Source of the DNA: Elusimicrobiota bacterium | Lineage (GTDB): Bacteria; Elusimicrobiota; Elusimicrobia; UBA1565; UBA9628 | Length of the DNA stretch: 64,000 nucleotides | Assembly: GCA_003151975.1 (NCBI GenBank) | Contig: PLZD01000010.1 | Coordinates: 201,261 to 265,260, forward strand | Direction: 5' to 3' | Part shown: positions 25,689-44,039 of the stretch, in pieces | Position numbering within the stretch: the stretch's first letter is position 1 | Layout of the letters: each line of letters begins with the position of its first letter | Translations under genes and position numbers: made by a program | The notes under the pieces: model-generated | Seen by the model: the letters and a program-made list of their open reading frames with translations, nothing else | The model's database searches: none | Told to the model about the DNA's origin: nothing

Positions 25689-27815
25689 TTATTGCCCGGC
25701 GTCGCCAGCTGTCGGAGGCTGCTGCGGCGGTTGGCTCTGCTGCGGCGTCGGCACCGGCTTCTTGCGCGGGATCGGCGGGCGGATGGTTTGGGCGCGATAA
25801 TTGTCGCTGTCTCCGCTGAGAGCCGGGAAATAATACTCGGCCGTCTTCTTGATCATCGGGTAGTCGGCGTTCTGCGCATCCGTGATGCCGTCTCTTGAGG
25901 CCAAAATGCCGGCGGTGATCGTCTTGCCGATCTGGAGCTGGCTCGTGCCCAGCAACATCGGAAGCTCGCCGTAAACGCGCGATCGCAGCGTGAACTCGCC
26001 CATAGCGGGCATGACTCCCGTCGCCAGCCCTTGACGGAAAGTCGACACGTTGCTGAGCAGAGAGCTTTCGTACCCCGCGCGGAGGGTGCCGCCGCCGAAG
26101 CCCGAGGCCGTGTTCGCGCCGGCTTCGTAAAGCGAGGTGACTTGCTCCATCCGCGCGACCTGAGGAGCGATGGATGTCATGGCCTCGGCTTTCTGGGCTT
26201 CGGAGAGCAGCGCGAACGATGAGACGCCCGCGCGTCGAGCGTAGCCCTCGAGAAGAGTCGCGCGAACTTGGATCATTTGCAGCGCGTGGACGGGTTCGTG
26301 GGCCTGACCGATGGCAGTATTGACCGTGATGCGGTCAGCCGACACGCTTTCTGCGGCGCCGAGGCTCTTTACGTCCTGCCATGCAGCGCGCAGCTTGCCC
26401 GCGCGGAGATTTTTCGCGAGGCTGCTGCCGTCGGAGACTTCCATTGTGATGCCGTACTTGCCGGCGTATTCCTGCAGCCCCGTCGTCAAAGCTTTCGCCT
26501 GCTTCGTGGCAAGAATGGTCCCGCCTTGTGCCGTGCTCTCCTTGACCACCGTCGTCAATCCCTGTTCGACCACTCGGGCGGCCTCGGCCGCGTGAGCGTC
26601 CGCAGCTACGATGCCCAACGCATCGCCGGTCGCGATGGCCTTCGCGTATGGTAGAGCCTTGCCGGTCACTGTGGCGCCGCGCAGCAGCTCGACGCCCGGG
26701 ATAAAAGTCATGGCGCTTAAGAGCGTATTTCCGCCAACCTTCGCGAGATCCCACGATTGCCTACCCCAAGTGGAGTCGCGATTGTGGTCCCACCGCAGTT
26801 GGTCGCTGCTTTGCTCGACGGCGCCGAAGCCGCTGATGTGGTAGAAGAATTTCATCGTGCCCGCGCCCATGTAAACGGCTGTCGCCATGCCGGGTCCTCG
26901 CTGGCCGTGGTCGACCATCGCGTCGTTGCCCTTCTGCATGTCGTCCCAATACTTCCAAGCGCCGGTCGCCCAGCCGTACTCGAATCCGGGTTGGCCCATT
27001 TGCGGCGCGTCGTGCGAGATCTCCGAAACGGGCGCGGGCACCTTCTTGTTGAGATCCGTCAGGCCGCCCGGCAGCTGCACGCGGGGCATATCCGAAATGT
27101 TCGACAGCTCGGCTTGCGTCAAAGGAGCGTTGGGATTGCGGCGGCCAACGATGACCGCGTTGCCGTTGCCATCGACGAACATCAGTCCGCCGAGGGCTTG
27201 GGCATATTGGCCGGCTTTCGCGGTGACCTGGCTGGAGACCTGCGTGTTGAGTTTGGGATTAGCGAGGACGCGCCGCGCCGCCTCGGCATCCATCGCCAAT
27301 TCTGCCTTTGATTTGTGCGCGGGGGCTCCTTGGCCGCGCACTTTGTCGCGGTAGAGCTTCATCAGCGCCGCTTTCTCATCCGTGCTGGGTTCGCGGCCGA
27401 ATAAAGCTTGAGCGACGATGATGATCGTTTGCTCGTAGACCTCGATTGGATCGGCGGGATCGCGGCCCTGCTGAACCGCGATCGCTTGAGCCTTGCTGTC
27501 ATCGAGGATCTTGAGGCCATTGCGCGCGTCTTGAGGGGAGATCGCTTGACCGGCGGCGTTTGACGCGTCGTCGCGATCGATGGGAGGCAGCTTGCTCGTA
27601 AGTTGACGGAAAATGTCGCCCGTCAAAGCCTGCTCGACGGGCCGCCCTTCGAGATAGGCCTTGGCGGCCTGCGCCTTCGCATCGCGGAAAATCTTGGCGA
27701 AGTCCTGGGATTTGACGGCCCAATCCATTTGAGGCTGGGTCGCGATGGGGCTCTCGGCCATCACTGGCGCGGTTTGGCAGAGGAGCATTGCGAGGACCAA
27801 AGTGCTTTGGCGCAT
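25689..27815 (-). CDS. large secreted hypothetical protein with a Pro/Gln-rich C-terminus
   Basis: Start taken at MRQSTLVLAMLLCQTAPVMA (signal peptide). No recognisable catalytic motif. Confidence 0.5.
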   Translation of the reverse strand: MRQSTLVLAMLLCQTAPVMAESPIATQPQMDWAVKSQDFAKIFRDAKAQAAKAYLEGRPVEQALTGDIFRQLTSKLPPIDRDDASNAAGQAISPQDARNGLKILDDSKAQAIAVQQGRDPADPIEVYEQTIIIVAQALFGREPSTDEKAALMKLYRDKVRGQGAPAHKSKAELAMDAEAARRVLANPKLNTQVSSQVTAKAGQYAQALGGLMFVDGNGNAVIVGRRNPNAPLTQAELSNISDMPRVQLPGGLTDLNKKVPAPVSEISHDAPQMGQPGFEYGWATGAWKYWDDMQKGNDAMVDHGQRGPGMATAVYMGAGTMKFFYHISGFGAVEQSSDQLRWDHNRDSTWGRQSWDLAKVGGNTLLSAMTFIPGVELLRGATVTGKALPYAKAIATGDALGIVAADAHAAEAARVVEQGLTTVVKESTAQGGTILATKQAKALTTGLQEYAGKYGITMEVSDGSSLAKNLRAGKLRAAWQDVKSLGAAESVSADRITVNTAIGQAHEPVHALQMIQVRATLLEGYARRAGVSSFALLSEAQKAEAMTSIAPQVARMEQVTSLYEAGANTASGFGGGTLRAGYESSLLSNVSTFRQGLATGVMPAMGEFTLRSRVYGELPMLLGTSQLQIGKTITAGILASRDGITDAQNADYPMIKKTAEYYFPALSGDSDNYRAQTIRPPIPRKKPVPTPQQSQPPQQPPTAGDAGQ

Positions 27816-27939
27816 AGAGGGGCTCGGCTTCCTTACAGTATTGGGCCGAGAGGGCGATCTGTCAATGACTTTCTTCGATTTTACCGAGGTTTTGTCGAGG
27901 CTGCTGGAACATTTTCGGGGGGTCAATCGTATACTCTTC

Positions 27940-29688
27940 ATGCCTCTCTCATACCTGCGGCGGCCGTTGTTCCTGGCGCTGGTCGTTTACATCGCGGCGC
28001 TCGCCGGGCTGCATGCCGCGGGATTTTTCCGGATCTTCGTTCCGCGGGAGACGCTGGCCTGGCGCGATGAGCCGACAATCTCTCTCGAAGGCGTGATCGC
28101 CTCGCCGCGGCGCGAGGATGGGCGAGGCGTGAAGTTCGTCGTCGCGGAGGCGCGCGTCGCGGGAGTCGACGCGCGGTCGAAGGTCTTGGTCTACTTGCCC
28201 CGCGGCGCGCCGGGAACAGAGGCGTGTCTGCCGGGCCGGACCGTGGCGCTGACGGGCCGCCTGCGCCTGCCGCGCTGGCCGCGCAATCCCGGCGAGTTCG
28301 ACGAACGCGGTTTCCTGTCGGACCGCGGCATCGGCTGGATCATGCAAGCGTCAAGCGTCGAGCCGCTGGGAGCGCCCGTCTCGCCGCGCTGGCGGCTGCT
28401 CGCGGTGGCCGAGAAGGTCCGACTGTCGATGCAAGCGGCCTTCGAGCGCGGATTCGGCGAGACTGACGCGCGTTTGCTGACGGCGGTCACACTCGGCTAC
28501 AAGGCTCCGCTGCCGCGGAGCCTGAACCGCGCGATCCAGGACTCGGGCGCGATGCATCTGCTCGTTCCGAGCGGGGCGAAGGTCGCCTTCGTGCTCTTGT
28601 TCATCGGCTGGATCGCGTCGACGCTCGGGCTTCCGCCGGGCTGGCGTCTGGCCGCGGCCGCGATCGCCGGAGGCTTCTACACGATCATGGTCGGCGGCGA
28701 GCCGCCTTACGCGCGCGCGTATCTCGGCGGCCTGGCGCTCGGTTTGGGCGCGCTCATCGACCGCGAGGCGGGCGCGTTCCAGGCCTTGGTGCTGTCGGCG
28801 TGGATTATTTTACTCGCCGATCCCCGAGCGTTGTTCTCGGCGGGGTTTCAAATGACTTACGCGGCGATGATCGGGCTCATCCTCGCGATGCCGCGCGTCG
28901 ACGCGGGTTTGCCCGGCCGCTGGCCGAAGGCCGCGCGCGGGCTTTGCTGCGTCGCCGCGGTGACAGTGATCGTACAGCTGATGCTGTGGCCGATCTTCGC
29001 GAACACTTTCGGCCGCGCGGCGGCTCTCGGTGCCTGCGCCAATCTCGCGCTCGTGCCGCTGTCGGGAGTGATCCTGGCTGGAGGCTTCATCTATTGGATT
29101 GTCGGACATGGCGCGCCCGTGCTTTCATCGCTTCTCTCCCTGCTTAAGTGGATCTGTTTTCAAGCGTCCAATCTTCCCTGGGCTGCGGTCAACCTCACGC
29201 CACTGACTCCTTGCGAGGTCCTGGCCTACTATCTTTTTGCCGCGGCAATCCTCATCCTTCCGCGACGAAGGATCGCCGCGGTCCTCGCGGCCTCCGCCAT
29301 TACATTCCACATCCTCTCCCTAACGGCCGCGAGGTTTTCAACGGCTCCATTGCATATCGTCTACCTCAGCCTACCGTCCGAGACGGCGGCGCTCGCTTGG
29401 CGTCATGGCAAGACCATTCTGATCGGACCGGCCGAGCCGTCGGCCCCCGTTTACCGCGCGATGAAGGCGCTCGGCGTGCGGCGGCTCGACGAAACCGTCG
29501 CGCTCGCGCAAAACCGCCGATTTTCTCTGTGCGAGGGCGGCGTCTGCTTTCGATTCGACCCGCCGCGCGTCCTACGAGGCTCCGAGGAATTTGATATAAT
29601 CGCTTCTCGCCTCAAGAGATCGTCCCTCGAGGCGTCTACCGATGGCTCTCGAATCGAAATCAAAGAAGCATCAGGAGCACGCCATTAA
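27940..29688 (+). CDS. comEC: ComEC/Rec2-family DNA-uptake channel protein (no MBL domain)
   Basis: DUF4131-like N-terminus plus a multi-TM competence domain. Start at MPLSYL preferred. Confidence 0.7.
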   Translation: MPLSYLRRPLFLALVVYIAALAGLHAAGFFRIFVPRETLAWRDEPTISLEGVIASPRREDGRGVKFVVAEARVAGVDARSKVLVYLPRGAPGTEACLPGRTVALTGRLRLPRWPRNPGEFDERGFLSDRGIGWIMQASSVEPLGAPVSPRWRLLAVAEKVRLSMQAAFERGFGETDARLLTAVTLGYKAPLPRSLNRAIQDSGAMHLLVPSGAKVAFVLLFIGWIASTLGLPPGWRLAAAAIAGGFYTIMVGGEPPYARAYLGGLALGLGALIDREAGAFQALVLSAWIILLADPRALFSAGFQMTYAAMIGLILAMPRVDAGLPGRWPKAARGLCCVAAVTVIVQLMLWPIFANTFGRAAALGACANLALVPLSGVILAGGFIYWIVGHGAPVLSSLLSLLKWICFQASNLPWAAVNLTPLTPCEVLAYYLFAAAILILPRRRIAAVLAASAITFHILSLTAARFSTAPLHIVYLSLPSETAALAWRHGKTILIGPAEPSAPVYRAMKALGVRRLDETVALAQNRRFSLCEGGVCFRFDPPRVLRGSEEFDIIASRLKRSSLEASTDGSRIEIKEASGARH

Positions 29689-30523
29689 CTCCGCGGTGGT
29701 TTTTTATAACGCCACGAAACCCGAGGCGGTGCGCATGATGCGCGTCGTCACCAAGGCGTTAAAAGAGCGCGGCGTGCGCGTTTGGCTCGGCCAATCCGGC
29801 TCCATCCGCGAGAAGCTGCGCCTGGCCGACATCGCCGTGGCGCTTGGCGGCGACGGAACCATGCTGCACGCCGCGCGCATACTCGCGCCGCACTCGATCC
29901 CGCTGTTGGGCGTCAACTCGGGCGGGCTGGGCTTTCTCTCCGGCACGGACGCTTCCGAGTTCAACCGCGATTGCGACGCGATCTTGAAGGGCAAGTTCGT
30001 GCTCGAGGAGCGCTGGATGGTCAGCGTCGAGGCCTATCGCGGCAAGCGTAAATTGTTCGGGCCCAACATCGCCTTGAACGACGTGGTCATCCGCTGCGGC
30101 GACCAGGCGCGTGCCATCTCGCTGAACGTCAAATCCGCCGACCTTTTTGTCGCCGACTACTTCGGCGACGGCCTCATCGTCTCGACGCCGACGGGCTCCA
30201 CGGCTTACAACTTGGCGGCCTCGGGGCCCATCGTCGACCCGAGCCTCGACGTTCTGCTGCTCGCGCCCATCTGCCCGCACACCTTGACCCAGCGGCCGCT
30301 GATCATCCCGGTCGAGGACCCGCTCACGATCAAGCTAACCACGCGCCGCGCCCACGAAGTGCCGCGCGTGCTGCTCTCGCTCGACGGCCAGCTCGGCTGC
30401 GCGCTCAAGGTCGGCGACGAGGTGCGCATCAAGCGCTACGAGAAGCCCTTCAAGCTCCTGCTCAATCCCAAGCGCTCGTATTACGAGGTTCTGCGCCGCA
30501 AGCTTCACTGGGGGGAACGCTAA
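29642..30523 (+). CDS. nadK: NAD(+) kinase
   Basis: GGDGTML and NSGGLGFL motifs. Confidence 0.8.
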   Translation: MALESKSKKHQEHAINSAVVFYNATKPEAVRMMRVVTKALKERGVRVWLGQSGSIREKLRLADIAVALGGDGTMLHAARILAPHSIPLLGVNSGGLGFLSGTDASEFNRDCDAILKGKFVLEERWMVSVEAYRGKRKLFGPNIALNDVVIRCGDQARAISLNVKSADLFVADYFGDGLIVSTPTGSTAYNLAASGPIVDPSLDVLLLAPICPHTLTQRPLIIPVEDPLTIKLTTRRAHEVPRVLLSLDGQLGCALKVGDEVRIKRYEKPFKLLLNPKRSYYEVLRRKLHWGER

Positions 30524-30524
30524 G

Positions 30525-32183
30525 ATGTTGCGCGAGCTGACGATCAAGAATTTCGCGATCATCGAGAACGAGACCCTGCGCCTCGGCGAGGGGCTCAACG
30601 TGCTGACCGGCGAGACCGGGGCGGGCAAGTCGATCTTGATCGAGGCTTTGGGCTTCCTGCTCGGCGCGCGCGGCTCGTCCTCATGGCTGCGCGCCGGAGC
30701 CGACCGCCTCGAGGTCTCGGGCGTGTTCGACTCGAAGGATTTCCCGAAAGAGATCCGAACGCAATTCAAAATCGCGGGTCCCGTGACCACGATCCGCCGC
30801 GAGCTCGACGCCTCGGGCAAGACGCGCGCGATCATCAACTCGCAGTCGGCCCCGCTTTCCACCTTGGCGTTATTAGGGGAGAGCCTCGTCGATTTTCACG
30901 GCCAGCACGAGCACCAGACTTTGGTCAAATCCTCGGCCCAACTCGCCCTGCTCGACGGCTACGGCGGCCTCATGGAAGAACTGGAGGCGGCGCGCGCGGC
31001 GTACGAGTCCTGGTCGATGCTGTCGGGGGAGCTCGATTCCGCGGCGATGTCCGACGAGGAGCGCCGCAAGCGCATTGAGCTGTCGCGCTTCCAGCTGCAG
31101 GAGCTCTCCGAGGCGAAGCTGAAAGTCGGCGAGGACGAGGAGCTCGAGGCTGCGTTGCCCCGGCTCAAAAACGCCGAGCGCCTGCGCACGCTGGCGGGCG
31201 GCGCCTACGACCTGCTCTACGGCCAGGACGGCTCGATCTTGGGCGGGCTCTTGAAGGCCGAGCGGGCCCTGGCCGAACTCTCGAAGATCGACGAGTCGAT
31301 GCGGGCCACGCACGATTCGCTGGAAACAGCCCGGCTCGCGCTCGAAGACCTCTCTCACGCTCTCGGCGATTACTACGACAAGCTTGGCTCAGATCCCGCC
31401 AAGCTCGATCAGATCATGTCGCGCCAAGACGCCTTGGCGCGCCTCAAGAAAAAATACGGCCCGACCGTCGAGGATCTGCTCGCCGCGCTTGAGAAGGCCG
31501 CGCTCGAGGTCTCGCGCCTGGAGAACTCCGCCGCGACGCTGGGCGAGCTCGAGCAAAAGCTCGCGGAGGCTCAGAAGGTGCTCGACGGCGCCTGCGAGGT
31601 TCTTCATCATGCTCGCCTCAAGGCCGCCCAGTCGCTCGAGGCCAAGCTCTCGAAAGAACTCAAGGTCCTCGGCATGGCGCAGGCGCAGTTCTCGGTCTCG
31701 GTCGAGATGGAAGAGGGCCGCTACACGCGGACCGGGGCGGACGCCGTCGAGTTCATGCTCGCGGCCAACCCCGGCGAACCGATGCGCCCGATCAAGGCCG
31801 TGGCCTCGGGCGGCGAGCTCTCGCGCGTGATGCTCGCCTTGAAAACCGTTTTGGCGCTCGCCGACCGCGTCCCGGTCCTCGTTTTCGACGAGGTCGACGC
31901 CGGCATCGGCGGGGCTGTCGCGCGCGCCGTGGGCCAGAAGCTCGCGGGCCTCGGGCAAAACCGCCAAGTCTTGTGCGTGACGCACCTGCCGCAGGTCGCT
32001 TGCTTCGGCCGCGAGCACTTCCAAGTCATCAAGGAAGTCTCCGGCGGCCGTACGAAAGTCGGCGTCACTCGCCTCGACGGGAAGAACCGCCTCGAGGCCA
32101 TCGCTTTGATGCTCGGCGGCCGCGAGGCCACGCCGGCTAGCCGCAAACACGCCCAGGAATTATTGGAGAGCTCGAGCGCATGA
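30525..32183 (+). CDS. recN: DNA repair protein RecN
   Basis: N-terminal Walker A GETGAGKS, long coiled coil, C-terminal signature/Walker B. Confidence 0.85.
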   Translation: MLRELTIKNFAIIENETLRLGEGLNVLTGETGAGKSILIEALGFLLGARGSSSWLRAGADRLEVSGVFDSKDFPKEIRTQFKIAGPVTTIRRELDASGKTRAIINSQSAPLSTLALLGESLVDFHGQHEHQTLVKSSAQLALLDGYGGLMEELEAARAAYESWSMLSGELDSAAMSDEERRKRIELSRFQLQELSEAKLKVGEDEELEAALPRLKNAERLRTLAGGAYDLLYGQDGSILGGLLKAERALAELSKIDESMRATHDSLETARLALEDLSHALGDYYDKLGSDPAKLDQIMSRQDALARLKKKYGPTVEDLLAALEKAALEVSRLENSAATLGELEQKLAEAQKVLDGACEVLHHARLKAAQSLEAKLSKELKVLGMAQAQFSVSVEMEEGRYTRTGADAVEFMLAANPGEPMRPIKAVASGGELSRVMLALKTVLALADRVPVLVFDEVDAGIGGAVARAVGQKLAGLGQNRQVLCVTHLPQVACFGREHFQVIKEVSGGRTKVGVTRLDGKNRLEAIALMLGGREATPASRKHAQELLESSSA

Positions 32184-32269
32184 GGAAAGGGGTTAGGCGT
32201 AGTGGAAAACAAGCACGAAAGTCTCGGCCGACCCGGCTAAGAGCATTTCGCCCGAATACGAAGAGCGGG

Positions 32270-33235
32270 ATGTGGGCCACGGGAGATATTTCTAAAACAG
32301 GAATTGTCTTCGACGCTGACGGCACGAGGGTTCCGCATCCGATTCCTTATCAAGGCAGCAAGCGAAATCTGTCTTCACAAATTCTATCGTACTTTCCCAA
32401 TCACATCAGCACCCTTATTGAACCGTTTGTTGGTTCGGGTGCGATTACTCTTGCTGCGGCTGTACGCGGCTTGGCTGAAAACTACCACTTGAATGACCTC
32501 AATGCACCTCTTGTAGAACTGTGGCGGACTATTATCGAAGAGCCGAATAAATTAGCAAAGAAGTACGAAACGATTTGGCACGAACAACACGCTGACCGCC
32601 GCGAGTATTATTGCGAAGTTCGTAACGAATTCAACCACACGCGTAAGCCCCACCACTTTCTCTACCTGCTGGCTCGGTGCGTCAAGGCTTCTGTTCGGTA
32701 TAACTCGAAGGGTGAATTTAACCAGAGTCCCGATAATCGGAGAATGGGAGCAATGCCTTCGACGATGCGGGATCATGTTCTCGGCGCCTCCTATCTGTTA
32801 AGAGGTAAGGCGAAATGTACCGCTGAGGACTATAAGACTCTTGTGCAACGCGCCAGTGCTGAGGATCTCGTTTACATGGATCCACCCTATCAGGGGGTAT
32901 CGGGTGATCGCGACTCTCGATATCTGAGGGGGGTACCCTTTGATGAATTTGTCGAAGTTTTACGCGATCTGAATAAACGTCAGATAAGCTACATCGTGAG
33001 TTACGATGGGCGGACCGGTGATAAGATCCACGGACGGACGCTGCCGCACACACTGCAGCTCAAGCACATTGAATTAGCAGCGGGACGATCGTCGCAAGAA
33101 ACGCTCTTGGGAAGAACGGCTGTCACCTACGAATCTCTTTACCTTTCTCCAGCACTAGAAAAGCGACTTGGGCCTTCTCGCACGCATTGCAAGGCAACAG
33201 TTGAGCAACTTGTGTTACTTGGGGCAAGCAGGTGA
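32270..33235 (+). CDS. Dam-family (D12 class) N6-adenine DNA methyltransferase
   Basis: PYQGSKRNL (Y.GGK-like AdoMet motif) and the DPPY catalytic motif (VYMDPPYQG). Lower GC than flanks. Start ambiguous (32180 or 32270). Confidence 0.7.
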   Translation: MWATGDISKTGIVFDADGTRVPHPIPYQGSKRNLSSQILSYFPNHISTLIEPFVGSGAITLAAAVRGLAENYHLNDLNAPLVELWRTIIEEPNKLAKKYETIWHEQHADRREYYCEVRNEFNHTRKPHHFLYLLARCVKASVRYNSKGEFNQSPDNRRMGAMPSTMRDHVLGASYLLRGKAKCTAEDYKTLVQRASAEDLVYMDPPYQGVSGDRDSRYLRGVPFDEFVEVLRDLNKRQISYIVSYDGRTGDKIHGRTLPHTLQLKHIELAAGRSSQETLLGRTAVTYESLYLSPALEKRLGPSRTHCKATVEQLVLLGASR

Positions 33236-33975
33236 CGCTCCCGAAGCTCCCGGCAAAATTCATTCGTCTTTGTAATAGTGTCACCGCGAAACGTCCGAGG
33301 ACGGTGATCGAGCATATTCTGAAACACGGGTTCATTACTACCGAAGTTCTGAAGGAAAAATACGGCTACAGCCATCCGCCCCGTGCAGCGCGCGACGTGA
33401 AGGAACACGGTATTCCGATTGTCATGTTTCGAGTCATTGGTCGCGATGGGCGAAAGATTGCTGCATATAAGTTCGGAGACCCAGGGAAGTTGCGTATGGG
33501 AACCCAACTTGGGCGGACCGTTTTATCGAAGGAGTTGAAGCAGTCACTCCTTGAACGGGATGGCGCCAAATGCGCCATCTATTGTGTCCCCTTTCCGGAA
33601 CGTGAGCTGCAGATCGATCACAGGGTTCCGTTCGAGGTCGTTGGCGACGCCCCAAAGACAAGTGCGAAAATTGCAGACTTCATGCTCCTTTGCGGATCGG
33701 CCAATCGAGCGAAATCGTGGTCCTGCGAGCATTGTGTGAATTGGATTGAACTCAAGAAGCCGGAAGTTTGCCGAGAGTGCTATTGGGCCTATCCGGGAAA
33801 CTATGCCCATATAGCCATGCGTCCGGTACGACGGGCCGATATCCTTTGGAACGAGGATGAAGTCGTGGACTACGAGTTGCTTAAGCGCAAAACAGAGCAG
33901 TTGCAGAGGAATATACCGAGTTACGTTAAGGAAATTGTTAAAGAGCATCTAAAAGGTGGTGGACGGAATGGGTAA
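33232..33975 (+). CDS. HNH-family endonuclease (putative Type II restriction enzyme paired with the MTase)
   Basis: LQIDHRVPFE...CGSANRAKSWSCEHC is an HNH/zinc-ribbon motif. ATGA overlap with the MTase stop. Lower GC. Confidence 0.6.
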   Translation: MTLPKLPAKFIRLCNSVTAKRPRTVIEHILKHGFITTEVLKEKYGYSHPPRAARDVKEHGIPIVMFRVIGRDGRKIAAYKFGDPGKLRMGTQLGRTVLSKELKQSLLERDGAKCAIYCVPFPERELQIDHRVPFEVVGDAPKTSAKIADFMLLCGSANRAKSWSCEHCVNWIELKKPEVCRECYWAYPGNYAHIAMRPVRRADILWNEDEVVDYELLKRKTEQLQRNIPSYVKEIVKEHLKGGGRNG

Positions 33976-35443
33976 CACATCTGTCGGCACGGCAAAAATC
34001 AGAACCCGTTTCGCCCCTTCCCCTACCGGTTATCTTCATATTGGTGGGGCCCGCACGACTCTGTTCAATTGGCTTTTCGCGCGCCATCACGGCGGGCAGT
34101 TCATCCTACGCATCGAGGACACCGACGAGGTGCGCTCGACCGAGGACTCCGTCCAGGCGATCTTGGACTCCGTGGCTTGGCTCGGGCTCGACTGGGACGA
34201 GGGTCCGCTCACCATGACCTCGGAGAAAGGCCCGCATCAATCTTATTATCAGATGAAGCGCGTCGACATCTACAAGAAGTACATCGGCGAGCTTCTGAAG
34301 GAAGGCAACGCCTATCCGTGCTACTGCACCAAGGATGAGATCGAAGCCATGCGGCGCCTGGCGCAGCTCGAGAAGCGCCCTCCCAAGTACGAGGGACGCT
34401 GCCGCAACCTGACCGACGCTCAGCGCAAGCAGAACGACGCGGGCGGCAAGCCGTTCTCGATTCGCTTCCGCATGCCCGAGGAAGGCACCACGATCGTCGA
34501 CGATCTGATTCGCGGCAAGGTGGAGTTTGAGAACAAGCTTCAGCAGGACCTCGTGATCCAGAAGACCACGGGCGGACCGACCTACAACTTCGCCTGCGTC
34601 GTCGACGACCATCTGATGGAAATGAGCCACGTCATCCGCGGCGACGAGCACCTCTCCAATACGCCCTCCCAGATTCAGATGTACAAGGCTCTAGGATGGG
34701 AAACGCCGCAGTTCGCACACTTGTCAATGATTATGGGCCCTGATGGCACCAAGTTGTCGAAACGGCATGGTGCAACTTCAGTTTTGGATTATAAAGTTAA
34801 AGGCTATCTGCCAGAAGCTATGCGAAACTATCTCGCGCTCTTGGGATGGGCTACGACGGATTCTCAACAATTGTTCTCAGGTGAAGAGTTGATATCAAAG
34901 TTTGATCTCGCCGGGTGCCAGAAGAGCCCTGCGACTTTCGATACTGTTAAACTCGACTGGATGAATGGGGAGTATATTCGGAAGACTCCGATCTCGAATC
35001 TGATTCAACTTGCGCAGCCTTTCATTGAAGGGGCGGGGCTTAAGGTGAATGGGGGACCGTCGCTAGAGAAGACGATTGCTCTTGAACATGAAAAATTCAA
35101 GCTTTTGTCCGAAATTCCTACGCTAATTGAATTCTTCTACAAACAAGTGGAATTCAATCCTAAAGCAATGGAAAAGGTTCTTAAGGCTCCAGGCGCCAAG
35201 GAAGTTCTCCTTGGACTTGCGGGTGAGCTCAAAGAATTCTCGCCGTTTGAGGACAAGAAACTCGAAGAGAGAATTAGGAAGTTCTGTGTCGATCGTGGCC
35301 TTAAACCAGGGCAGGTTTTCCATCCCCTTCGAGTCGCGTGCACCGGCCGTACCGAGGGTCCGACCCTATTCTTAATGTTGGAAATTATGGGGCGGGAAAA
35401 GGTGATTGATCGTCTCAACGAAGCTGCTGCGCTCCTTCAGTAG
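33956..35443 (+). CDS. gltX: glutamyl-tRNA synthetase
   Basis: RFAPSPTGYLHIGGARTTLFNW (HIGH region) and the KLSKRHG (KMSKS) motif. GC-content mosaic along the gene. Confidence 0.85.
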   Translation: MVDGMGNTSVGTAKIRTRFAPSPTGYLHIGGARTTLFNWLFARHHGGQFILRIEDTDEVRSTEDSVQAILDSVAWLGLDWDEGPLTMTSEKGPHQSYYQMKRVDIYKKYIGELLKEGNAYPCYCTKDEIEAMRRLAQLEKRPPKYEGRCRNLTDAQRKQNDAGGKPFSIRFRMPEEGTTIVDDLIRGKVEFENKLQQDLVIQKTTGGPTYNFACVVDDHLMEMSHVIRGDEHLSNTPSQIQMYKALGWETPQFAHLSMIMGPDGTKLSKRHGATSVLDYKVKGYLPEAMRNYLALLGWATTDSQQLFSGEELISKFDLAGCQKSPATFDTVKLDWMNGEYIRKTPISNLIQLAQPFIEGAGLKVNGGPSLEKTIALEHEKFKLLSEIPTLIEFFYKQVEFNPKAMEKVLKAPGAKEVLLGLAGELKEFSPFEDKKLEERIRKFCVDRGLKPGQVFHPLRVACTGRTEGPTLFLMLEIMGREKVIDRLNEAAALLQ

Positions 35444-35456
35444 AACCCTTCTGCCG

Positions 35457-36341
35457 ATGGCAAACCCGAATCTTATCGACCTCCCGTGGCTTACAAGTGA
35501 GGGTGCAGCGAATGCACTGCTCACCTGTTTGCAGAAAGCGTTGCAATTGCCAGGGGACACGATCCTTAACGCGTCTGACGTTAAATGGATTTCGCCCTTC
35601 GGAACAATCCTGCTTGCAGACTTCTCCCTGAAAAGAATTCGGGCGGGTCACTCTGTTTCTATTCAAATGCCGAAACATCGGGAAACCGCAGAGTACATTA
35701 GGACGAGCGGGTTGTTAAAACTCACGGAATCGAGCAACCTCTCAAATGCCGTAACCCCTGATACTTTGGAACTTCGCCTTCTTAAGCGTATGGAGGGCAA
35801 TGTTCCGCAGTTGGTCGCGGACTTTGTCGCTACACAGGCAATCAACGTTGGCGAAGATGAGCGGTACCTTCTTCGAATTTGGATTACTGAATTGCTTACG
35901 AATGCGAATGATCATGCCAACTCGGAGTCTGGCTTTTGGATTTGCGCGCGCTATACTCCTAGCCGTCGAGATATCCGTATCTGTGTGGCGGATGCGGGGA
36001 TCGGGATTCGAACTTCACTCGTCAAATCTGGGAAGTATGGCCACGCGATGACTGACTCCCAAGCCCTCGAAAAAGCATTGCAAGAAGGCGTCACGTCGCG
36101 GCCGGGTCACACTGGTGGCCTCGGACTAAAGCAAATTGTCGCGTATGTCAAAGCGCATGGAGGTTCCCTTTCCATGTTTTCGGGAAAATCGCGAATCAAA
36201 GTGAGGCGCAAACAGAAGAACGCGATATCAGCACTCCCTGTTGATTATCTCGGGACAATCGTAACAGCAGCGTTCGATCCACAGACCATGGCTACCCTAG
36301 AAGTGGAATCTGGAGAAGAGTCGCCATTCAACTTCGAATAA
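35457..36341 (+). CDS. STAS-like N-terminal domain fused to a GHKL (HATPase_c) ATPase/kinase domain
   Basis: N-box ELLTNANDHA, G1 DAGIGI, G2 GHTGGLGLKQI. N-terminal ~130 aa resemble STAS (ILNASDVKWISPFGTILL). No HisKA H-box. Confidence 0.55.
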   Translation: MANPNLIDLPWLTSEGAANALLTCLQKALQLPGDTILNASDVKWISPFGTILLADFSLKRIRAGHSVSIQMPKHRETAEYIRTSGLLKLTESSNLSNAVTPDTLELRLLKRMEGNVPQLVADFVATQAINVGEDERYLLRIWITELLTNANDHANSESGFWICARYTPSRRDIRICVADAGIGIRTSLVKSGKYGHAMTDSQALEKALQEGVTSRPGHTGGLGLKQIVAYVKAHGGSLSMFSGKSRIKVRRKQKNAISALPVDYLGTIVTAAFDPQTMATLEVESGEESPFNFE

Positions 36342-36345
36342 CATC

Positions 36346-36735
36346 ATGGCACATGTGACTCTCATGGTCGGTGAAATTTGCGGAGATCGGATTTATACCC
36401 GAGAGGATGGGAAGCCGTTGTTTGAGAAAATCGCCACGGCGCTTAAGGCTGGAGATACTGTCACTGTTGATTTTGGTGGACGAGAAATAGCCTCGGAGTC
36501 ATTCTTGGACGAGGCGTTGGTTGAGCACTATCTCCATCCGATTTCTCCATTGGTGCCCAAAGGCATTGCTCTCAAGAATGTGGCGCGACCGGACCAATCT
36601 CTCTTAAAGAGAATTTTCGAATACCGCAAGCGCTTGGAGCAAAAACAAAAGCGAAAGGAAGAACGCGATGGTAAGAAAGCCGCAGCAAGTGCGCGTAAGG
36701 ACTTTACTCCAATCGCTGAGGACAAGCCGTCCTGA
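36346..36735 (+). CDS. DUF4325 (STAS-like) small protein with a Lys-rich tail
   Basis: 129 aa. The TVDFGGREIASESFLDEAL pattern is typical of DUF4325. 4-nt gap from the upstream gene. Confidence 0.5.
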   Translation: MAHVTLMVGEICGDRIYTREDGKPLFEKIATALKAGDTVTVDFGGREIASESFLDEALVEHYLHPISPLVPKGIALKNVARPDQSLLKRIFEYRKRLEQKQKRKEERDGKKAAASARKDFTPIAEDKPS

Positions 36736-36837
36736 CGGTCTCAACTAATCCTCAAATTTCCCCCTAGGCCTTTTTGGGCCTTGCGGATTTTTCGGAACTG
36801 ATATAACATGAGGCTTACGATCTTAAGGGGCTCTAAC

Positions 36838-37335
36838 ATGAAAAAGAAAACCGCCGTCGCCAAGAAGACTTCCGCCCGCAAGCATCCCTCCGTCGGTAAA
36901 GCCGTCCCGGCGTCGAAGCTCGGCGCGGTGCGCAAAGAGCTCTTAGCCATGCGCGACGACTTGATGAAGACCGTGCGCAAGCAGCAGCTTTCCGAGAGCG
37001 CCAGCCAAGACACCGGCGACTCGGTCGACGAGGCCAGCCGCTCAATCGAGAAGGAACTTCTGTTCGAGCTTTCCGACAACGAGCGCGTGACCTTGGACCA
37101 GATCGAGGCGGCGCTGCGTAAGATCGACAAGGGGACCTACGGCCTTTGCGAGTCCTGCCAAACCTCGATCGCCAAGGCGCGGCTCAACGCCTTGCCCTTC
37201 GCGCGCTACTGCATCGAGTGCCAGAGCACGTCGGAGTCGGCGCCCGATCTCGTGGAGGCGCCGGCGGAATTCCGGGGCTTCGGCGGCGGCGGCAACGCCG
37301 AAGAGGGCGGCACCGGCGGCGGCTTCGAGCGCTAG
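36838..37335 (+). CDS. DksA/TraR-family C4 zinc-finger protein
   Basis: GTYGLCESCQTSIAKARLNALPFARYCIECQ zinc finger. Good RBS. High GC resumes here. Confidence 0.7.
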   Translation: MKKKTAVAKKTSARKHPSVGKAVPASKLGAVRKELLAMRDDLMKTVRKQQLSESASQDTGDSVDEASRSIEKELLFELSDNERVTLDQIEAALRKIDKGTYGLCESCQTSIAKARLNALPFARYCIECQSTSESAPDLVEAPAEFRGFGGGGNAEEGGTGGGFER

Positions 37336-38726
37336 GCTTTAGCCGCGTCTTTCTCGGCTTCCCAGGCCGAGATTCCGCCCAGCAGGTCCGCGAGTTGTTT
37401 TCTTCCCGCGCGTTCGAGCACGCTTGCCGCCACCATGGAGCGGTAGCCGCTCGCGCAGTGGATGATCAAGCGCCCTGACATCGGGACTTCCTTGACGCGT
37501 CGCTCGAGTTGGTTGAGCGCGATGTGCATCGAGCCGGGAATTTTGAGCGCCTTGCGCTCGGCGTCGTTGCGCACGTCGAGCACGAGCGGCGGCTTGGTCA
37601 GCCCGAGCTCTTCGTTGAGCCGGCCGGCGTCGACGCGCTCGACCTCGGCCACGAGATCGGGACTCTTTTTTAGAGCCTCCATGCCGCCTTTCAAGAAGCC
37701 CGCAACCTGGTCGAAACCTATGCGGCCGAGCCGCAGCATGGCCTCTTGCTCGTGGCCGTGCTCCGCCACGATGATCAGAGGCTTGCGCCGGTCGAGCATG
37801 ATGCCCGCCCAGCTCGCGAAGCGCCCGCCGAGACCGATGTTGAGGCTGCCCCGCAGGTGTGCGCCGGCGTACTCGCCCGGATCGCGCACGTCGAGGACGA
37901 CGGCGCCCGAGTGTTGGAGCTTAAGCGCCTGCGCAAGACTCAGGGCCTTGAGGCTTTTCTTGAGCGACTTCGGCAGGGTCTGCCGCATCTCGCGATTGAG
38001 CTTCGCGTCATAGGCGAAATAGGCGGGCGCCTCGGGCTGGTCGGCGGTCACGAGCTTGACGAACTCGTTGCGGTTCATGGGCTTCAAGGCGTAGTTGTGC
38101 CGCCGCTGTTCTCCGATCGTCGAGACCGTCTCGGAGCTCATGTTTTTTCCGCACATCGAGCCCGCGCCGTGGGCCGGGTAGACGAGCGTTGCGTCGGGCA
38201 GGGCCAGGATTTTCTTGTGCAGCGAGTCGTAGAGCGAGCTCGCGAGCTGTTTGGCCGTGACGCCGACGGAGGCCATGAGGTCCGGGCGCCCGACGTCGCC
38301 GATGAAGAGCGTGTCGCCGGTGAAGACCGCGCGCGGCGCGGCCGGGTTCTTCTTCAAATCGTAGGCCAGGATGCAGACGCCCTCAGGCGTGTGGCCCGGC
38401 GTCGCGAGGAACTTGAGGCGAGTGTCGCCGAATTCGAGCGCGCCGCCGTCGGTCATGGGCTCGAACGGGTAATCGGCCTTTCCCTTCGCGCCGATGTGGA
38501 TCGTGGCGTTGCAAAGCTCCTTGAGCTCGATGTGCCCCGCGATGAAATCGGCGTGGAAGTGCGTCAGAAGGACGTGCCGGATCGTCCAGCCCTTGCGCTT
38601 GGCCTCGGCCAGGTACGCCTCGACGTCGCGCTGGGGATCGATCACGACGGCGGTCTTGCTCTTGTCGTCGCCGATCAGGTACGAGGCATGGGAGAGGCAC
38701 GCCAGGTAGAATTGCTTTATTTTCAT
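37332..38726 (-). CDS. MBL-fold hydrolase fused to tandem rhodanese domains (persulfide dioxygenase/sulfurtransferase-like)
   Basis: HFHADFIAGH metal motif. C-terminal rhodanese active site CASGYRS. Confidence 0.7.
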   Translation of the reverse strand: MKIKQFYLACLSHASYLIGDDKSKTAVVIDPQRDVEAYLAEAKRKGWTIRHVLLTHFHADFIAGHIELKELCNATIHIGAKGKADYPFEPMTDGGALEFGDTRLKFLATPGHTPEGVCILAYDLKKNPAAPRAVFTGDTLFIGDVGRPDLMASVGVTAKQLASSLYDSLHKKILALPDATLVYPAHGAGSMCGKNMSSETVSTIGEQRRHNYALKPMNRNEFVKLVTADQPEAPAYFAYDAKLNREMRQTLPKSLKKSLKALSLAQALKLQHSGAVVLDVRDPGEYAGAHLRGSLNIGLGGRFASWAGIMLDRRKPLIIVAEHGHEQEAMLRLGRIGFDQVAGFLKGGMEALKKSPDLVAEVERVDAGRLNEELGLTKPPLVLDVRNDAERKALKIPGSMHIALNQLERRVKEVPMSGRLIIHCASGYRSMVAASVLERAGRKQLADLLGGISAWEAEKDAAKA

Positions 38727-38805
38727 TCGAGTTTCCTCGAGCTAAATTAGCATTTTGACGCCTTGAAAACGTAACAACGGGACGATACACTGTCGGGACC
38801 AGAGC

Positions 38806-41076: not shown

Positions 41077-41103
41077 CCTCTAAAGGAAGGGACCGCTCCG
41101 GCA

Positions 41104-41132
41104 TTGACAAACCGCGGTTTGGAGGTTACTCT
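41104..41132 (+). promoter_or_regulatory. candidate sigma70 promoter of pilB (TTGACA -17 nt- TACTCT)
   Basis: Consensus -35 hexamer with 17-nt spacing. AAGGA RBS just before the ATG at 41145. Confidence 0.4.
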
Positions 41133-41144
41133 TCTAATTAAGGA

Positions 41145-42923: not shown

Positions 42924-42938
42924 GCAAAAGGAAAAATT

Positions 42939-44015
42939 ATGATATCGATGAGCGAACTGTTTCTTCTCATGCACGAGCGCGGCGCCTCGGACCTGCACCT
43001 GACCGTCGGCGCTCCTCCGACTTTGCGCATCGACGGCCAGCTGGTTCCGACCCCATTCGAGAAGCTCACCCACGAGACCTCGCAAAGCCTCATCTTCTCG
43101 CTTCTGACCGAGCAGCAGCGCCAAAAATACGAGGCCACCAACGAGCTCGACCTCGCCTTCGGCCTGAAAGGCATCGGCCGCCTGCGCATGAACATCTACC
43201 GGCAGCGCGGCGCCGTCGGGGCCGCGGTGCGCTCGATTCCCGGCTCGTTTAAGTCCTTCGAGGAGATCGGCCTGCCGCAAGTCGTCTATGAGATCATGAA
43301 AATCCCCAAGGGCCTCGTCCTCGTGACGGGACCTACGGGCTCAGGTAAATCCACCACGCTCGCGAGCATGATCGACTACATCAACGAGCACCGCTCGGCG
43401 CACATCGTCACCGTCGAGGATCCCATCGAGTACGTCCACCAGCACAAGAAGTGCCTGATCAACCAACGCGAAGTGGGCCAGGACTCCGAGAGTTTCGCGG
43501 CGGCCTTGAAGTTCGTGCTGCGCCAGGACCCCAATGTCATCCTGATCGGCGAGCTTCGCGACCTCGAGACGATTTCGGCCGCGCTGACCATAGCGGAGAC
43601 GGGCCACCTGGTCTTCGCGACCCTGCACACGACCGACTGCGCCCAGACCATCAACCGCATCATCGACGTCTTCCCTCAGCACCAGATCGAGCAGGTGCGC
43701 GTGCAGCTTTCGTTCGTGCTGCAGGCCATTCTCTGCCAGCAGCTCGTGCCGCACGCCTCGGGCACGGGCCGGGTCCTTGCGTGCGAGATACTCATGGTCA
43801 CCTCGGCCATCCGCAACCTCGTGCGCGAGCAGAAGGTCGAGCAGATCCAGCTGGCCATCCAGACCGGCGCCAAATTCGGCATGCAGACGATGAACCAGGG
43901 CTTGGCCGACCTCTATCGCGGACAGAGAGCCACTTTCCAGGAAGTCATGGCGCGCTCGTTAGACCCGGAAGACTTGAGACGGCTCCTTCAAAAGGGCCAG
44001 CCCGTGCCGAATTAA
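42939..44015 (+). CDS. pilT: twitching motility (retraction) ATPase PilT
   Basis: GPTGSGKSTTL Walker A and PilT-like length. Confidence 0.85.
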   Translation: MISMSELFLLMHERGASDLHLTVGAPPTLRIDGQLVPTPFEKLTHETSQSLIFSLLTEQQRQKYEATNELDLAFGLKGIGRLRMNIYRQRGAVGAAVRSIPGSFKSFEEIGLPQVVYEIMKIPKGLVLVTGPTGSGKSTTLASMIDYINEHRSAHIVTVEDPIEYVHQHKKCLINQREVGQDSESFAAALKFVLRQDPNVILIGELRDLETISAALTIAETGHLVFATLHTTDCAQTINRIIDVFPQHQIEQVRVQLSFVLQAILCQQLVPHASGTGRVLACEILMVTSAIRNLVREQKVEQIQLAIQTGAKFGMQTMNQGLADLYRGQRATFQEVMARSLDPEDLRRLLQKGQPVPN

Positions 44016-44039
44016 GTACACTGAAGACAGAGGTGTCAT

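Follow-up and report, generated by a model that had tools for sequence, protein, structure and literature searches.

Between recN and a dksA-like gene of an Elusimicrobiota bacterium lies a tract of low GC content, which raises the question of whether it is one horizontally acquired island and by what route it entered a housekeeping operon. We analysed the tract within a 64-kb window, the window being the whole stretch of DNA analysed (64,000 nt). The GC drop is confirmed, and it is large: 400-nt windows go from a GC of 0.67 at 31800–32199 to 0.49 at 32200–32599, range from 0.46 to 0.60 inside the tract and have regained 0.665 by 37000–37399, in agreement with an initial annotation of the same DNA that described an abrupt drop just past recN and a return near the dksA-like gene. 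The seven 1-kb windows inside the tract (GC 0.498–0.562, z = −3.1 to −5.8) all fall below the minimum of the 116 outside it (0.579; mean 0.637, s.d. 0.024). The tetranucleotide L1 distance between 32184–36736 and the remaining window is 0.463, higher than for any of 51 equal-sized windows (mean 0.165, s.d. 0.044, maximum 0.343). GC content at third codon positions (GC3) cleanly separates the methyltransferase (MTase, 0.50), restriction endonuclease (REase, 0.565), GHKL (0.54) and DUF4325 (0.51) genes from native nadK (0.874), recN (0.87) and dksA (0.869). The tract was initially placed at 32260–36800; its presence stands, and its limits are now 32184, the first base past the recN stop and slightly farther out on the left, and 36736. 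Five co-oriented genes fill it, none of them a recombinase gene, and the gene content is as first proposed, namely a Dam-like MTase, a putative HNH endonuclease, the ends of gltX and a STAS-GHKL/DUF4325 pair (Table 1).

Table 1 Features of the locus, with positions in the 64-kb window; L001 is the closest relative.
Feature	Position	Strand	Description
ComEC/Rec2-type competence channel gene	27745..29688	+	Pfam Competence and DUF4131
recN, native left flank	30525..32183	+	Pfam SMC_N/AAA_23; GC3 0.87 up to its end
Dam-family (D12 class) N6-adenine DNA methyltransferase	32180..33235	+	PF02086 1.5e-38; first gene of the restriction-modification cassette
Type II restriction endonuclease (predicted)	33232..33975	+	N-terminal winged-helix domain; C-terminal HNH-like Cys/His motif
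gltX segment 1, donor-type 5' end	33968..34045	+	GC3 0.42; 69.6% nt identity to L001
gltX segment 2, native core	34046..34687	+	GC3 0.85; 81.5% nt, 88.3% aa identity to L001
gltX segment 3, donor-type 3' part	34688..35443	+	GC3 0.51; 70.2% nt, 77.6% aa identity to L001
STAS + SpoIIAB/RsbW-like GHKL kinase fusion	35457..36341	+	294 aa; N-terminal STAS domain, then kinase domain
DUF4325 STAS-like protein	36346..36735	+	129 aa; PF14213 7.6e-08, 32.4 bits vs cut-off 23
Relic of displaced native gltX 3' end	36737..36749	+	CGGTCTCAACTAA; reads ..LN-stop, directly past the DUF4325 stop
dksA-like gene, native right flank	36838..37335	+	PF01258 3e-12; GC3 0.869

Comparison with relatives shows that the tract is two separate two-gene cassettes flanking gltX, not one uniform island. 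Among 80 recN loci of other Elusimicrobia species, gltX directly follows recN at 28 (gap −12 to 195 nt), and dksA comes next after gltX in 14 of these (gap 76–311 nt); the MTase, REase, GHKL and DUF4325 genes occur at none of the 80. A blastn alignment to L001 is colinear save for 32181–34003 and 35433–36755, two insertions that replace L001 spacers of 18 nt and 17 nt, respectively. The ancestral empty site is approximated through this relative, which is about 81–86% identical at the nucleotide level in native flanking genes (82.6–86.2% in the flank comparison); recN shares 82.6% nucleotide and 83% amino acid identity with it, and the dksA-like gene 84.0% nucleotide identity, homology restarting at 36756. 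Horizontal acquisition, as initially suggested, is thus supported by the contiguity of recN and gltX in 28 species and by the lack of cassette genes at all 80 relative loci. The idea of one island survives as far as foreign DNA is concerned but not as a single block, given that gltX remains in its ancestral position between the two cassettes.

gltX itself is a donor/native/donor chimera, intact and essential. It is complete, single copy within the window and encodes 491 aa in an uninterrupted reading frame, with full-length matches to bacterial glutamyl-tRNA synthetase (TIGR00464 gltX_bact 553 bits vs cut-off 290; PF00749 2.4e-109; PF19269 3.1e-29) and the motifs HIGG and KLSKR. A three-segment GC3 model reaches an LLR of 35.4 vs a permutation maximum of 13.6 (0/300), and GC3 is equal in both halves of the gene in 28 of 28 relatives. 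Only the 5' and 3' ends had been annotated as low in GC, and the central ~640 nt is indeed native in composition: its identity to L001 is at the level of the flanking native genes, its substitutions are balanced (30 versus 34) and a neighbour-joining (NJ) tree places the window and L001 as tight sisters. Substitutions relative to L001 run 9 versus 2 towards A/T in the first segment, and the bias in the third is 142 versus 22. The first segment has a new start codon inside the last REase codons and a 6–7-residue N-terminal extension. The third holds the KMSKS motif and the anticodon-binding domain, ends in LLQ* vs the LN* of the clade and is as distant from L001 as different species of the clade are from each other (L001–L004 77.2% aa). 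Both breakpoints, near 34046 and 34688, lie in the most conserved stretches, the 3' one after a 23-nt run identical to L001 (34628–34650), and the donor-type ends run on into the adjoining cassettes. The donor-type pieces group within the same Elusimicrobia clade and so probably came from a lower-GC relative, not from a distant organism. The donor sequence itself was not found. The gene that comes closest to the donor-type 3' part has only 80% amino acid identity and belongs to a high-GC relative with normal gltX–dksA synteny, and any donor arrangement is read from the window alone.

At the right edge, a 13-nt sequence is colinear with the end of L001 gltX (CGGCTCAACTAA) and keeps the 8-nt spacing of L001 to a conserved intergenic block (TTTCCCCTAGG); gltX ends in LN-stop in five relatives (L001, L002, L003, L004 and L006). 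This relic (..CTCAACTAA) does not duplicate the sequence in which gltX now ends (..CTCCTTCAGTAG). The native 3' ~740 nt of gltX has been replaced here, with possible CGG microhomology, and the relic would mark a non-homologous right outer junction. At the left edge the recN TGA stop overlaps the MTase ATG at 32180 (ATGA). Homology to L001 ends at 32180 and protein similarity to the cassettes of two other loci, L099 and L109, begins at MTase residue 10; the junction lies between 32184 and about 32207, where a 4-nt ATGA microhomology and a very short homologous tract in recN both fit. An extended relic at this junction was looked for and not supported. Searches of the window and the tract flanks agree with the initial annotation in finding no tRNA or tmRNA in the 64 kb, no meaningful direct or inverted repeats around the tract and no integrase or recombinase among the five tract genes or in the neighbouring gene tables. 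A classical integrative genomic island was rejected, given that recombinase gene, tRNA/tmRNA or att site and flanking repeats are all missing.

We put the probability at roughly 70% that the two accessory cassettes, along with parts of gltX from a relative, entered the conserved nadK–recN–gltX–dksA operon by recombination through that gene. The source of the incoming DNA would be an Elusimicrobia relative of ~50% GC that already carried both cassettes directly next to gltX. This gene would have acted as the homology anchor, with two inner crossovers near its breakpoints, while an illegitimate join 9–13 nt ahead of the native gltX stop would have formed the right outer end and left the relic, and the left outer end would sit at or within ~25 nt of the recN stop and native gltX start (ATGA). 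The outcome would be an intact chimeric gltX and a seven-gene co-oriented operon. Recombination through gltX, and not site-specific integration, had been proposed from the outset, and the chimera, the contiguous donor-type ends, the relic and the lack of integrase, tRNA and att-like repeats argue for it. Because the inner junctions are homologous and the right outer one appears not to be, homology-facilitated illegitimate recombination (HFIR) seems to fit better than a plain double homologous exchange.

HFIR, a homologous exchange at one end with illegitimate joining at the other, is known from natural transformation in Acinetobacter, Pseudomonas stutzeri and Streptococcus pneumoniae (PMC3240628). 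As in those cases, foreign genes lie beside a homologous anchor without integrase, att site or terminal repeat, the switches at ~34046 and ~34688 fall in a shared gene next to L001-identical runs, and a non-homologous join that deletes recipient DNA is suggested on the right. Unlike in the HFIR studies, the event is deduced from a finished genome and not observed, and one gene anchors both sides, producing the donor/native/donor pattern. The divergence of ~30% at the nucleotide level across the anchor is high next to laboratory HFIR substrates. Uptake of the DNA would presuppose competence for natural transformation, which is putative in this organism. A ComEC gene (NCBIfam TIGR00360 ComEC_N-term 68.7 vs cut-off 36.5) is nearby, and type IV pilus/T2SS-type ATPase and platform genes lie downstream, near the locus; we take the DNA-uptake machinery encoded beside the locus as context only.

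Mosaic housekeeping genes are also found flanking exchanged accessory loci, for example the pbp genes beside pneumococcal capsule loci. gltX resembles these in being a core gene beside an exchanged locus, with imported tracts and breakpoints in conserved stretches, but it has an imported cassette on either side and its centre is still native, and its host is an uncultured Elusimicrobia bacterium. Recombination through gltX would make the locus a clear-cut case of an already known process rather than a novel one.

The number and order of events could differ. The MTase–REase–gltX–GHKL–DUF4325 block may have replaced the native gltX in one step, with the ~640-nt native patch restored later from island-free conspecifics, or with a recipient patch left in the heteroduplex of the same transformation event. 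All donor-type segments share a GC3 of 0.42–0.57, consistent with one source. The REase gene runs into the start of gltX, and 13 nt separate the gltX stop from the GHKL start, which suggests that the donor carried both cassettes and gltX as one contiguous stretch. Single transformation events have been documented to leave donor/recipient mosaics (PMC13344027). However, such an import needs either one more event or an anchor in the middle flanked by two heterologous tails, for which we know of no direct precedent, and an island-free variant of the species was not found among contigs of other assemblies. It departs from the preferred reading only in how many events occurred and in what order, and we consider it somewhat unlikely. 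Independent insertion of the cassettes, for example with long target duplication or by a recombinase acting in trans, followed by secondary alteration of the gltX ends, is doubtful. Both cassettes are found in many unrelated contexts, published work describes both restriction-modification genes that inserted with long target duplication and mobile type II pairs inserted into operon-like clusters (Furuta, Abe and Kobayashi 2010, PMC2853133), and at L081, another locus carrying the GHKL/DUF4325 pair, an upstream gene without GC3 mosaic has a ~50-nt imperfect duplication of its 3' end flanking the cassette. Yet the relic at the present locus differs from the current gltX end, no repeat surrounds the restriction-modification cassette here, in L098 or in L099, no recombinase is nearby, and the 750 nt and ~80 nt of donor-type gltX contiguous with the cassettes would go unexplained. 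The 5' donor tract in gltX is only ~80–110 nt, short as a recombination anchor, and the cassettes could also have been placed by another mechanism, with gltX altered by later recombination.

Assembly artefacts deserve attention, given that the window comes from a metagenome scaffold and that both inner breakpoints fall where gltX is highly conserved. The k-mers that related genomes have in common there could let a scaffold switch from a high-GC Elusimicrobia genome to one of ~50% GC and back. Such a chimera would need four switches, two of them (32184 and 36736) at sites without homology between the partners, and neither the relic nor the intact reading frames would be expected of random misjoins. 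Moreover, the same junctions, identical in sequence, are present in contigs that other assemblies and pipelines produced, among them L097 (JGI), which spans both gltX breakpoints, L095 (Logan), which spans the DUF4325–relic–dksA junction, and three further long contigs; misassembly is very improbable. Hardly credible is the view that the genes are ancient residents whose low GC stems from their function or from a local mutation bias and not from transfer. The GHKL/DUF4325 pair has GC below its flanks and its host in L081 and L087 as well, so low GC could be intrinsic to such genes, but they are missing from 28 of 28 syntenic relatives, the effect lies in synonymous third positions and not in amino acid composition, and sharp switches inside an essential gene are absent from all relatives.

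The left cassette is best read, from domain and motif matches, as a type II restriction-modification pair of a Dam-family m6A MTase and a winged-helix/HNH-type endonuclease. The MTase matches TIGR00571 (Dam family, 127.8 vs cut-off 114.85) and PADLOC MTase_II (1.5e-85), its nearest solved relatives are M.DpnII and Dam, and it carries the SAM-binding and (D/N)PP(Y/F) motifs, the latter as DPPY (YMDPPYQG). The REase matches PADLOC REase_II PDLC03566 (1.5e-57) and is encoded by a separate, adjacent gene that shares 4 nt with the MTase gene and 8 nt with the start of gltX. Homologues of the two co-occur side by side in L098 and in 43 of 50 metagenome loci; the other 7 are mostly contigs too short to show adjacency. 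Over- and under-representation of palindromes in the 64-kb window gave no recognition-site candidate (GATC O/E 1.03; only CTAG, universally rare, is depleted). As with other mobile type II pairs, this is a compact overlapping MTase–REase unit of deviant composition in a housekeeping operon, and the pair recurs in unrelated contexts in many phyla at a GC of 0.34–0.65, for example in an antiporter operon (L098) and between a dehydrogenase gene and asd (L099). Unlike them, the unit has no long target duplication, inverted repeats or linked integrase or transposase, and it runs directly into the donor-type 5' end of gltX.

The right cassette appears to be a two-gene module resembling a partner-switching system and present also in prophages. 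It combines a GHKL-fold SpoIIAB/RsbW-type Ser kinase domain with an adjacent STAS-domain partner, and DUF4325 is the constant partner of the GHKL gene in L081–L085, L087–L092 and a Streptococcus prophage; no cognate sigma factor or PP2C phosphatase gene is adjacent in any of these or here. In SpoIIAB/SpoIIAA and RsbW/RsbV, by contrast, STAS is not fused to the kinase and no second, free STAS-like protein is added; the present unit also differs in lacking the sigma factor and phosphatase, in being mobile, in having lower GC than its hosts and in occurring in prophage accessory regions. The similarity of its GHKL domain to classical RsbW is too low for the Pfam HATPase_c_2 cut-off (21.7 vs 27.4). 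Among the anti-phage systems described in PADLOC-DB v2, DUF4325 has no match and the GHKL domain has a partial match to one DrmA model only (1.5e-11, 114/1750 positions). The cassette is probably a conflict or defence-type module.

A more specific and speculative reading, which we regard as unlikely, is that the STAS-RsbW-like kinase and DUF4325 form an undescribed mobile conflict module of toxin-antitoxin or anti-phage type with partner-switching chemistry, which as a rule inserts at a host gene's 3' end and leaves that end behind as a displaced copy. If so, this module and the restriction-modification pair would bracket an essential aminoacyl-tRNA synthetase gene, so that either would be hard to lose by deletion without harming gltX. 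Displaced gene ends lie beside the GHKL/DUF4325 pair at three loci: that of gltX here, that of an enoyl-CoA hydratase gene in L081 and, less certainly, that of an ACT-domain gene in L092. The upstream-gene relic in L092 is borderline; that in L081 is a 50-nt remnant of the upstream gene's 3' end past the cassette (score 68, shuffle maximum 32).

In 400-nt windows, the GC content is 0.67 immediately ahead of the recN stop codon and 0.49 at 32200-32599; it then remains at 0.46-0.60 until it recovers to 0.665 by 37000-37399. The seven 1-kb windows lying wholly within this tract have a GC content of 0.498-0.562 (z -3.1 to -5.8 relative to the rest of the 64-kb window: mean 0.637, sd 0.024, minimum 0.579), and the tetranucleotide distance between the tract and the rest, 0.463, is greater than for any of 51 control windows of equal size (maximum 0.343). 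The shift resides in synonymous positions, with a GC3 of 0.50-0.57 in the four accessory genes and 0.87 in nadK, recN and dksA. The low-GC tract that the initial annotation described, falling sharply near the recN stop and recovering toward dksA, is thereby confirmed, and its reading as acquired DNA is supported with the refinements described below.

The window belongs to a metagenome scaffold of 522 kb from an Elusimicrobia bacterium, and the gene limits in the locus agree with independent gene calls on that scaffold. The genes are closely packed, and family searches returned the content read at first by eye, namely a methyltransferase, an endonuclease, gltX ends and a STAS-GHKL/DUF4325 pair. 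The same holds for the reported lack of an integrase, a tRNA or direct repeats: no tRNA or tmRNA that could serve as an insertion target lies in the 64-kb window, no recombinase within or near the tract, and att-like or terminal/flanking repeats around either cassette gave chance-level matches only. A promoter and terminator scan of the island found nothing exceeding shuffled expectation.

Genes of the recN-dksA locus, neighboring DNA-uptake and pilus genes, and a phage-borne GHKL/DUF4325 pair
Feature	Position	Strand	Remarks
ComEC/Rec2 competence-channel homologue	27745-29688		two genes upstream of island
recN	30525-32183	+	native left neighbor
D12/Dam-family N6-adenine methyltransferase (MTase)	32180-33235	+	PF02086 1.5e-38; TIGR00571 127.8 bits (cut-off 114.85); PADLOC MTase_II 1.5e-85
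Restriction enzyme (REase), 247 aa	33232-33975	+	PADLOC REase_II 1.5e-57; without Pfam family
gltX, complete	33968-35443	+	TIGR00464 553 bits (cut-off 290)
GHKL protein, 294 aa	35457-36341	+	
DUF4325 protein, 129 aa	36346-36735	+	
dksA-like gene	36838-37335	+	
MshEN+T2SSE ATPase, second T2SSE (PilT-like) ATPase, T2SSF platform gene	~41145-44040 onward		downstream of island
298-aa GHKL and overlapping 99-aa DUF4325 (PF14213 9.6e-11)	L149 2495-3684 (record 40970-42159)		Streptococcus phage phiGBSVK-D_GBSInt8.1

A RecN scan with one genome per species gave 80 Elusimicrobia loci, of which L001 is the closest (RecN identity 83%). In 28 of the 80, gltX stands directly after recN (gap -12 to 195 nt), and in 14 of those 28 dksA comes next (gap 76-311 nt); homologues of the four accessory genes occur at none of the 80 recN loci. 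The nucleotide alignment of the window to L001 runs colinearly over 29323-32180, 34004-35432 and 36756-39256, and the interruptions at 32181-34003 and 35433-36755 stand where L001 has spacers of merely 18 and 17 nt. Given that colinearity is broken only by these two stretches, gltX is in its ancestral place with one insertion on each side. Hence, the foreign origin of the low-GC DNA stands, but not its description as one island. Six relatives (L011, L012, L022, L024, L027 and L028) have an additional and distant GluRS-like gene near the recN locus, 24-37% identical to the window GltX; none is found within the 64-kb window.

The gltX gene itself is mosaic in composition. Along the gene, sliding GC3 starts low, rises to native-like values (0.75-0.93) in the central part and drops to 0.42-0.60 over the 3' half, and a three-segment likelihood fit places breaks at ~34046 and ~34688 with GC3 of 0.42, 0.85 and 0.51 (log-likelihood gain of 35.4 vs a maximum of 13.6 over 300 permutations), in agreement with the initial view that only the two ends are low in GC. 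GC3 is equal in both gltX halves in 28 of 28 relatives. Nucleotide identity to L001 is 81.5% in the gltX core, as compared with 82.6% in the 3' part of recN, 86.2% in nadK and 84.0% in dksA, and is 69.6% and 70.2% in the 5' and 3' segments of gltX. Substitutions in the core are balanced (30 with A/T in the window and G/C in L001, 34 the reverse); in the 3' segment they number 142 and 22. At the protein level the core has 88.3% identity to L001, the two being tight sisters in a neighbor-joining tree, and the 3' part has 77.6%, a level also found between different species of the clade (77.2% for L001-L004). The first breakpoint falls in the HIGH-motif region and the second is preceded by a 23-nt run identical to L001 (34628-34650, HVIRGDEH motif), both being expected points of resolution when diverged sequences recombine. 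The open reading frame is uninterrupted, with HIGG and KLSKR motifs present. Judged from its sequence, gltX is an in-frame chimera of two lineages, of which ~830 nt would be donor-type, that is, derived from incoming DNA of ~50% GC.

GltX ends in ...AAALLQ-stop in the window and in ...LN-stop in five relatives (L001, L002, L003, L004 and L006). Directly after the DUF4325 stop codon lies CGGTCTCAACTAA, which matches the L001 gltX terminus CGGCTCAACTAA, stop codon included, and is 8 nt from the conserved intergenic block TTTCCCCTAGG, the same spacing as in L001. We take these 13 nt to be a relic left by the native gltX terminus when it was displaced, in which case the incoming DNA was joined on its right without homology, 9-13 nt ahead of the native stop. 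On the left, the gltX ATG of relatives overlaps the recN stop (ATGA), and in the window the MTase reading frame comes after that ATGA. Similarity of the MTase to other cassette copies begins at residue 10, which puts the left joint at most ~25 nt from the recN stop. An extended relic of the native gltX 5' end at 32184-32300 was considered and rejected, given that local alignments to six relatives scored no better than shuffles. Nor were donor tracts detected in the 3' end of recN, upstream of dksA or within dksA, where substitution bias is indistinguishable from the genome-wide baseline, although the end of recN may hold a very short homologous tract. The present gltX start codon is created in the last REase codons (33964-33975; CGGAATGGGTAA; AATGGGTAA) with an 8-nt overlap; the window reads GGC where relatives have the gltX ATG, and the N-terminus is 6-7 residues longer. 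This start inside the REase gene, together with a spacer of only 13 nt from the gltX stop to the GHKL start, indicates that both cassettes probably already abutted gltX in the donor.

Both cassettes recur elsewhere, and from these contexts they appear to be mobile units. The REase family has 5768 matches, the best non-self ones 79-84% identical, and a few members are named HNH endonuclease by NCBI. Among 50 metagenome loci with host GC of 0.34 to 0.65, an MTase homologue lies beside the REase gene in 43, most others being on contigs too short to show pairing, and gltX adjoins the pair in none. In an unrelated organism of 63% GC, the pair, with a DUF2283 gene ahead of it, sits without flanking repeats in a housekeeping operon, between Proton_antipo_M genes of an antiporter/complex I-like operon (L098, 5093-6735); at another locus (L099) it lies between a dehydrogenase gene and asd. 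The REase gave no match to solved structures by sequence, a fold search with a modest predicted model returned a winged helix only, and palindrome avoidance in the 64-kb window pointed to no recognition site.

In the contexts examined, the GHKL gene is always followed by the DUF4325 gene. In a second Elusimicrobiota genome (L081, 70% identity) the pair comes after an enoyl-CoA hydratase gene; in a low-GC organism it follows paaK and an ACT-domain gene, with toxin-antitoxin genes adjoining; and in the accessory region of a Streptococcus agalactiae prophage (25-26% identity) it is flanked by the lysis region and paratox. Its GC content is below that of the flanks in L081 and L087, as in the window. 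Distant homologues of the kinase also occur in other phages and plasmids, and the GHKL protein matches phrog_3364 (4.8e-36); PADLOC-DB v2 gave no full model match, the GHKL domain having one partial hit, to a single DrmA model, and DUF4325 none. In the literature we found three incidental mentions of DUF4325 only, of which one links it to a VapC-like PIN group and another describes a 293-aa protein paired with DUF4325 in a Francisella prophage. What we infer about the role of the kinase/STAS pair comes solely from fold, partner conservation and occurrence on mobile elements; as a widespread two-gene module it is a reasonable candidate for experiments. A conserved Ser lies in an ASESF segment of DUF4325 and in a WISPFG segment of the fused STAS domain, both candidate phosphorylation sites. 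The 298-aa GHKL protein of the streptococcal phage is also present in six other streptococcal phage records, the DUF4325 partner having been checked in phiGBSVK-D_GBSInt8.1 only. Contigs L087-L092 have one identical GHKL protein in common, and in them the spot downstream of DUF4325 is hypervariable and rich in toxin-antitoxin genes (HTH_3+VapB, HigB+HTH_3+VapB, DUF4760 or unannotated ORFs).

A displaced gene end follows this cassette in at least one other host. In L081, a ~50-nt imperfect direct repeat (7871-7923 and 9272-9321) flanks the cassette and consists of the hydratase 3' end and a displaced copy, ending in ..AFLAKRKPIWRE-stop vs ..AFLAKRKPVWRDA-stop (alignment score of 68 vs a shuffle maximum of 32); the upstream hydratase gene is without a GC3 mosaic. 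In L092, the ACT-domain gene ends in FTVITGSKLYEF-stop and an in-frame FTVVTGAKRWAG-stop follows the cassette (1902-1929 and 3249-3276), a candidate relic that is borderline at the DNA level (score of 26 vs a shuffle maximum of 29). Together with the window, this makes two, possibly three, independent hosts in which the cassette is followed by a displaced end of its upstream neighbor.

The best reading of the locus is uptake of DNA from a related Elusimicrobia lineage of ~50% GC and its integration via gltX. The incoming DNA would have carried R-M-gltX-GHKL-DUF4325, with gltX as the homology anchor, and homologous crossovers within gltX would have gone together with an illegitimate joint at one or both outer ends, a combination known as homology-facilitated illegitimate recombination (PMC3240628). 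The proposal that recombination ran through gltX rather than being site-specific is supported by the chimera and by the missing integrase, tRNA and repeats, with the refinement that the relic points to a non-homologous right outer joint. There may have been two events, one per cassette, or a single event that left a recipient patch in gltX; mosaics of donor and recipient sequence are reported from single transformation events (PMC13344027). Insertion with a long target duplication, as published for R-M units (PMC2853133), could fit L081 but not the window, in which relic and present gltX end are unlike and ~830 nt of donor-type gltX would be left unexplained. Assembly chimerism is unlikely, given that two of the four switches fall where the partners share no homology and that identical junction sequences occur in contigs of other assemblies.

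Searches for the donor lineage gave, as best match to the donor-type 3' half of gltX, 80% amino acid identity on L096, a contig from a high-GC relative in which gltX and dksA are arranged as usual. When RecN, DksA, the GHKL protein and an REase fragment were looked up by exact match to find an island-free form of this organism, every contig retrieved was 100% identical to the window.

If gltX did anchor the uptake, the locus is an unusually legible natural record of accessory and defense genes entering a compact operon without mobile-element machinery, in which the essential gltX is the recombination handle itself and a 13-nt scar marks the illegitimate end. Aminoacyl-tRNA synthetase chimeras can then be a by-product of defense-gene capture, and such exchange would occur in Elusimicrobia, an uncultured groundwater lineage in which, to our knowledge, nothing is known experimentally about gene transfer. 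Mobile type II R-M pairs, capture by recombination and mosaic core genes are all known phenomena; what the locus offers is not a new category but a particularly clear natural case from an unstudied phylum.

Putative DNA-uptake and type IV pilus parts adjoin this locus, which resembles a transformation product, and uptake is plausible. Two stretches downstream, 42241-42491 and 43402-43661, are ~69% identical and correspond to the paralogous T2SSE ATPase genes. The window also encodes a 756-aa proline/alanine-rich protein (38806-41076; local GC up to 0.75) with a faint GYF_2 match only, which is conserved among relatives in position and patchily in sequence, appearing as two separate tblastn segments in most loci.
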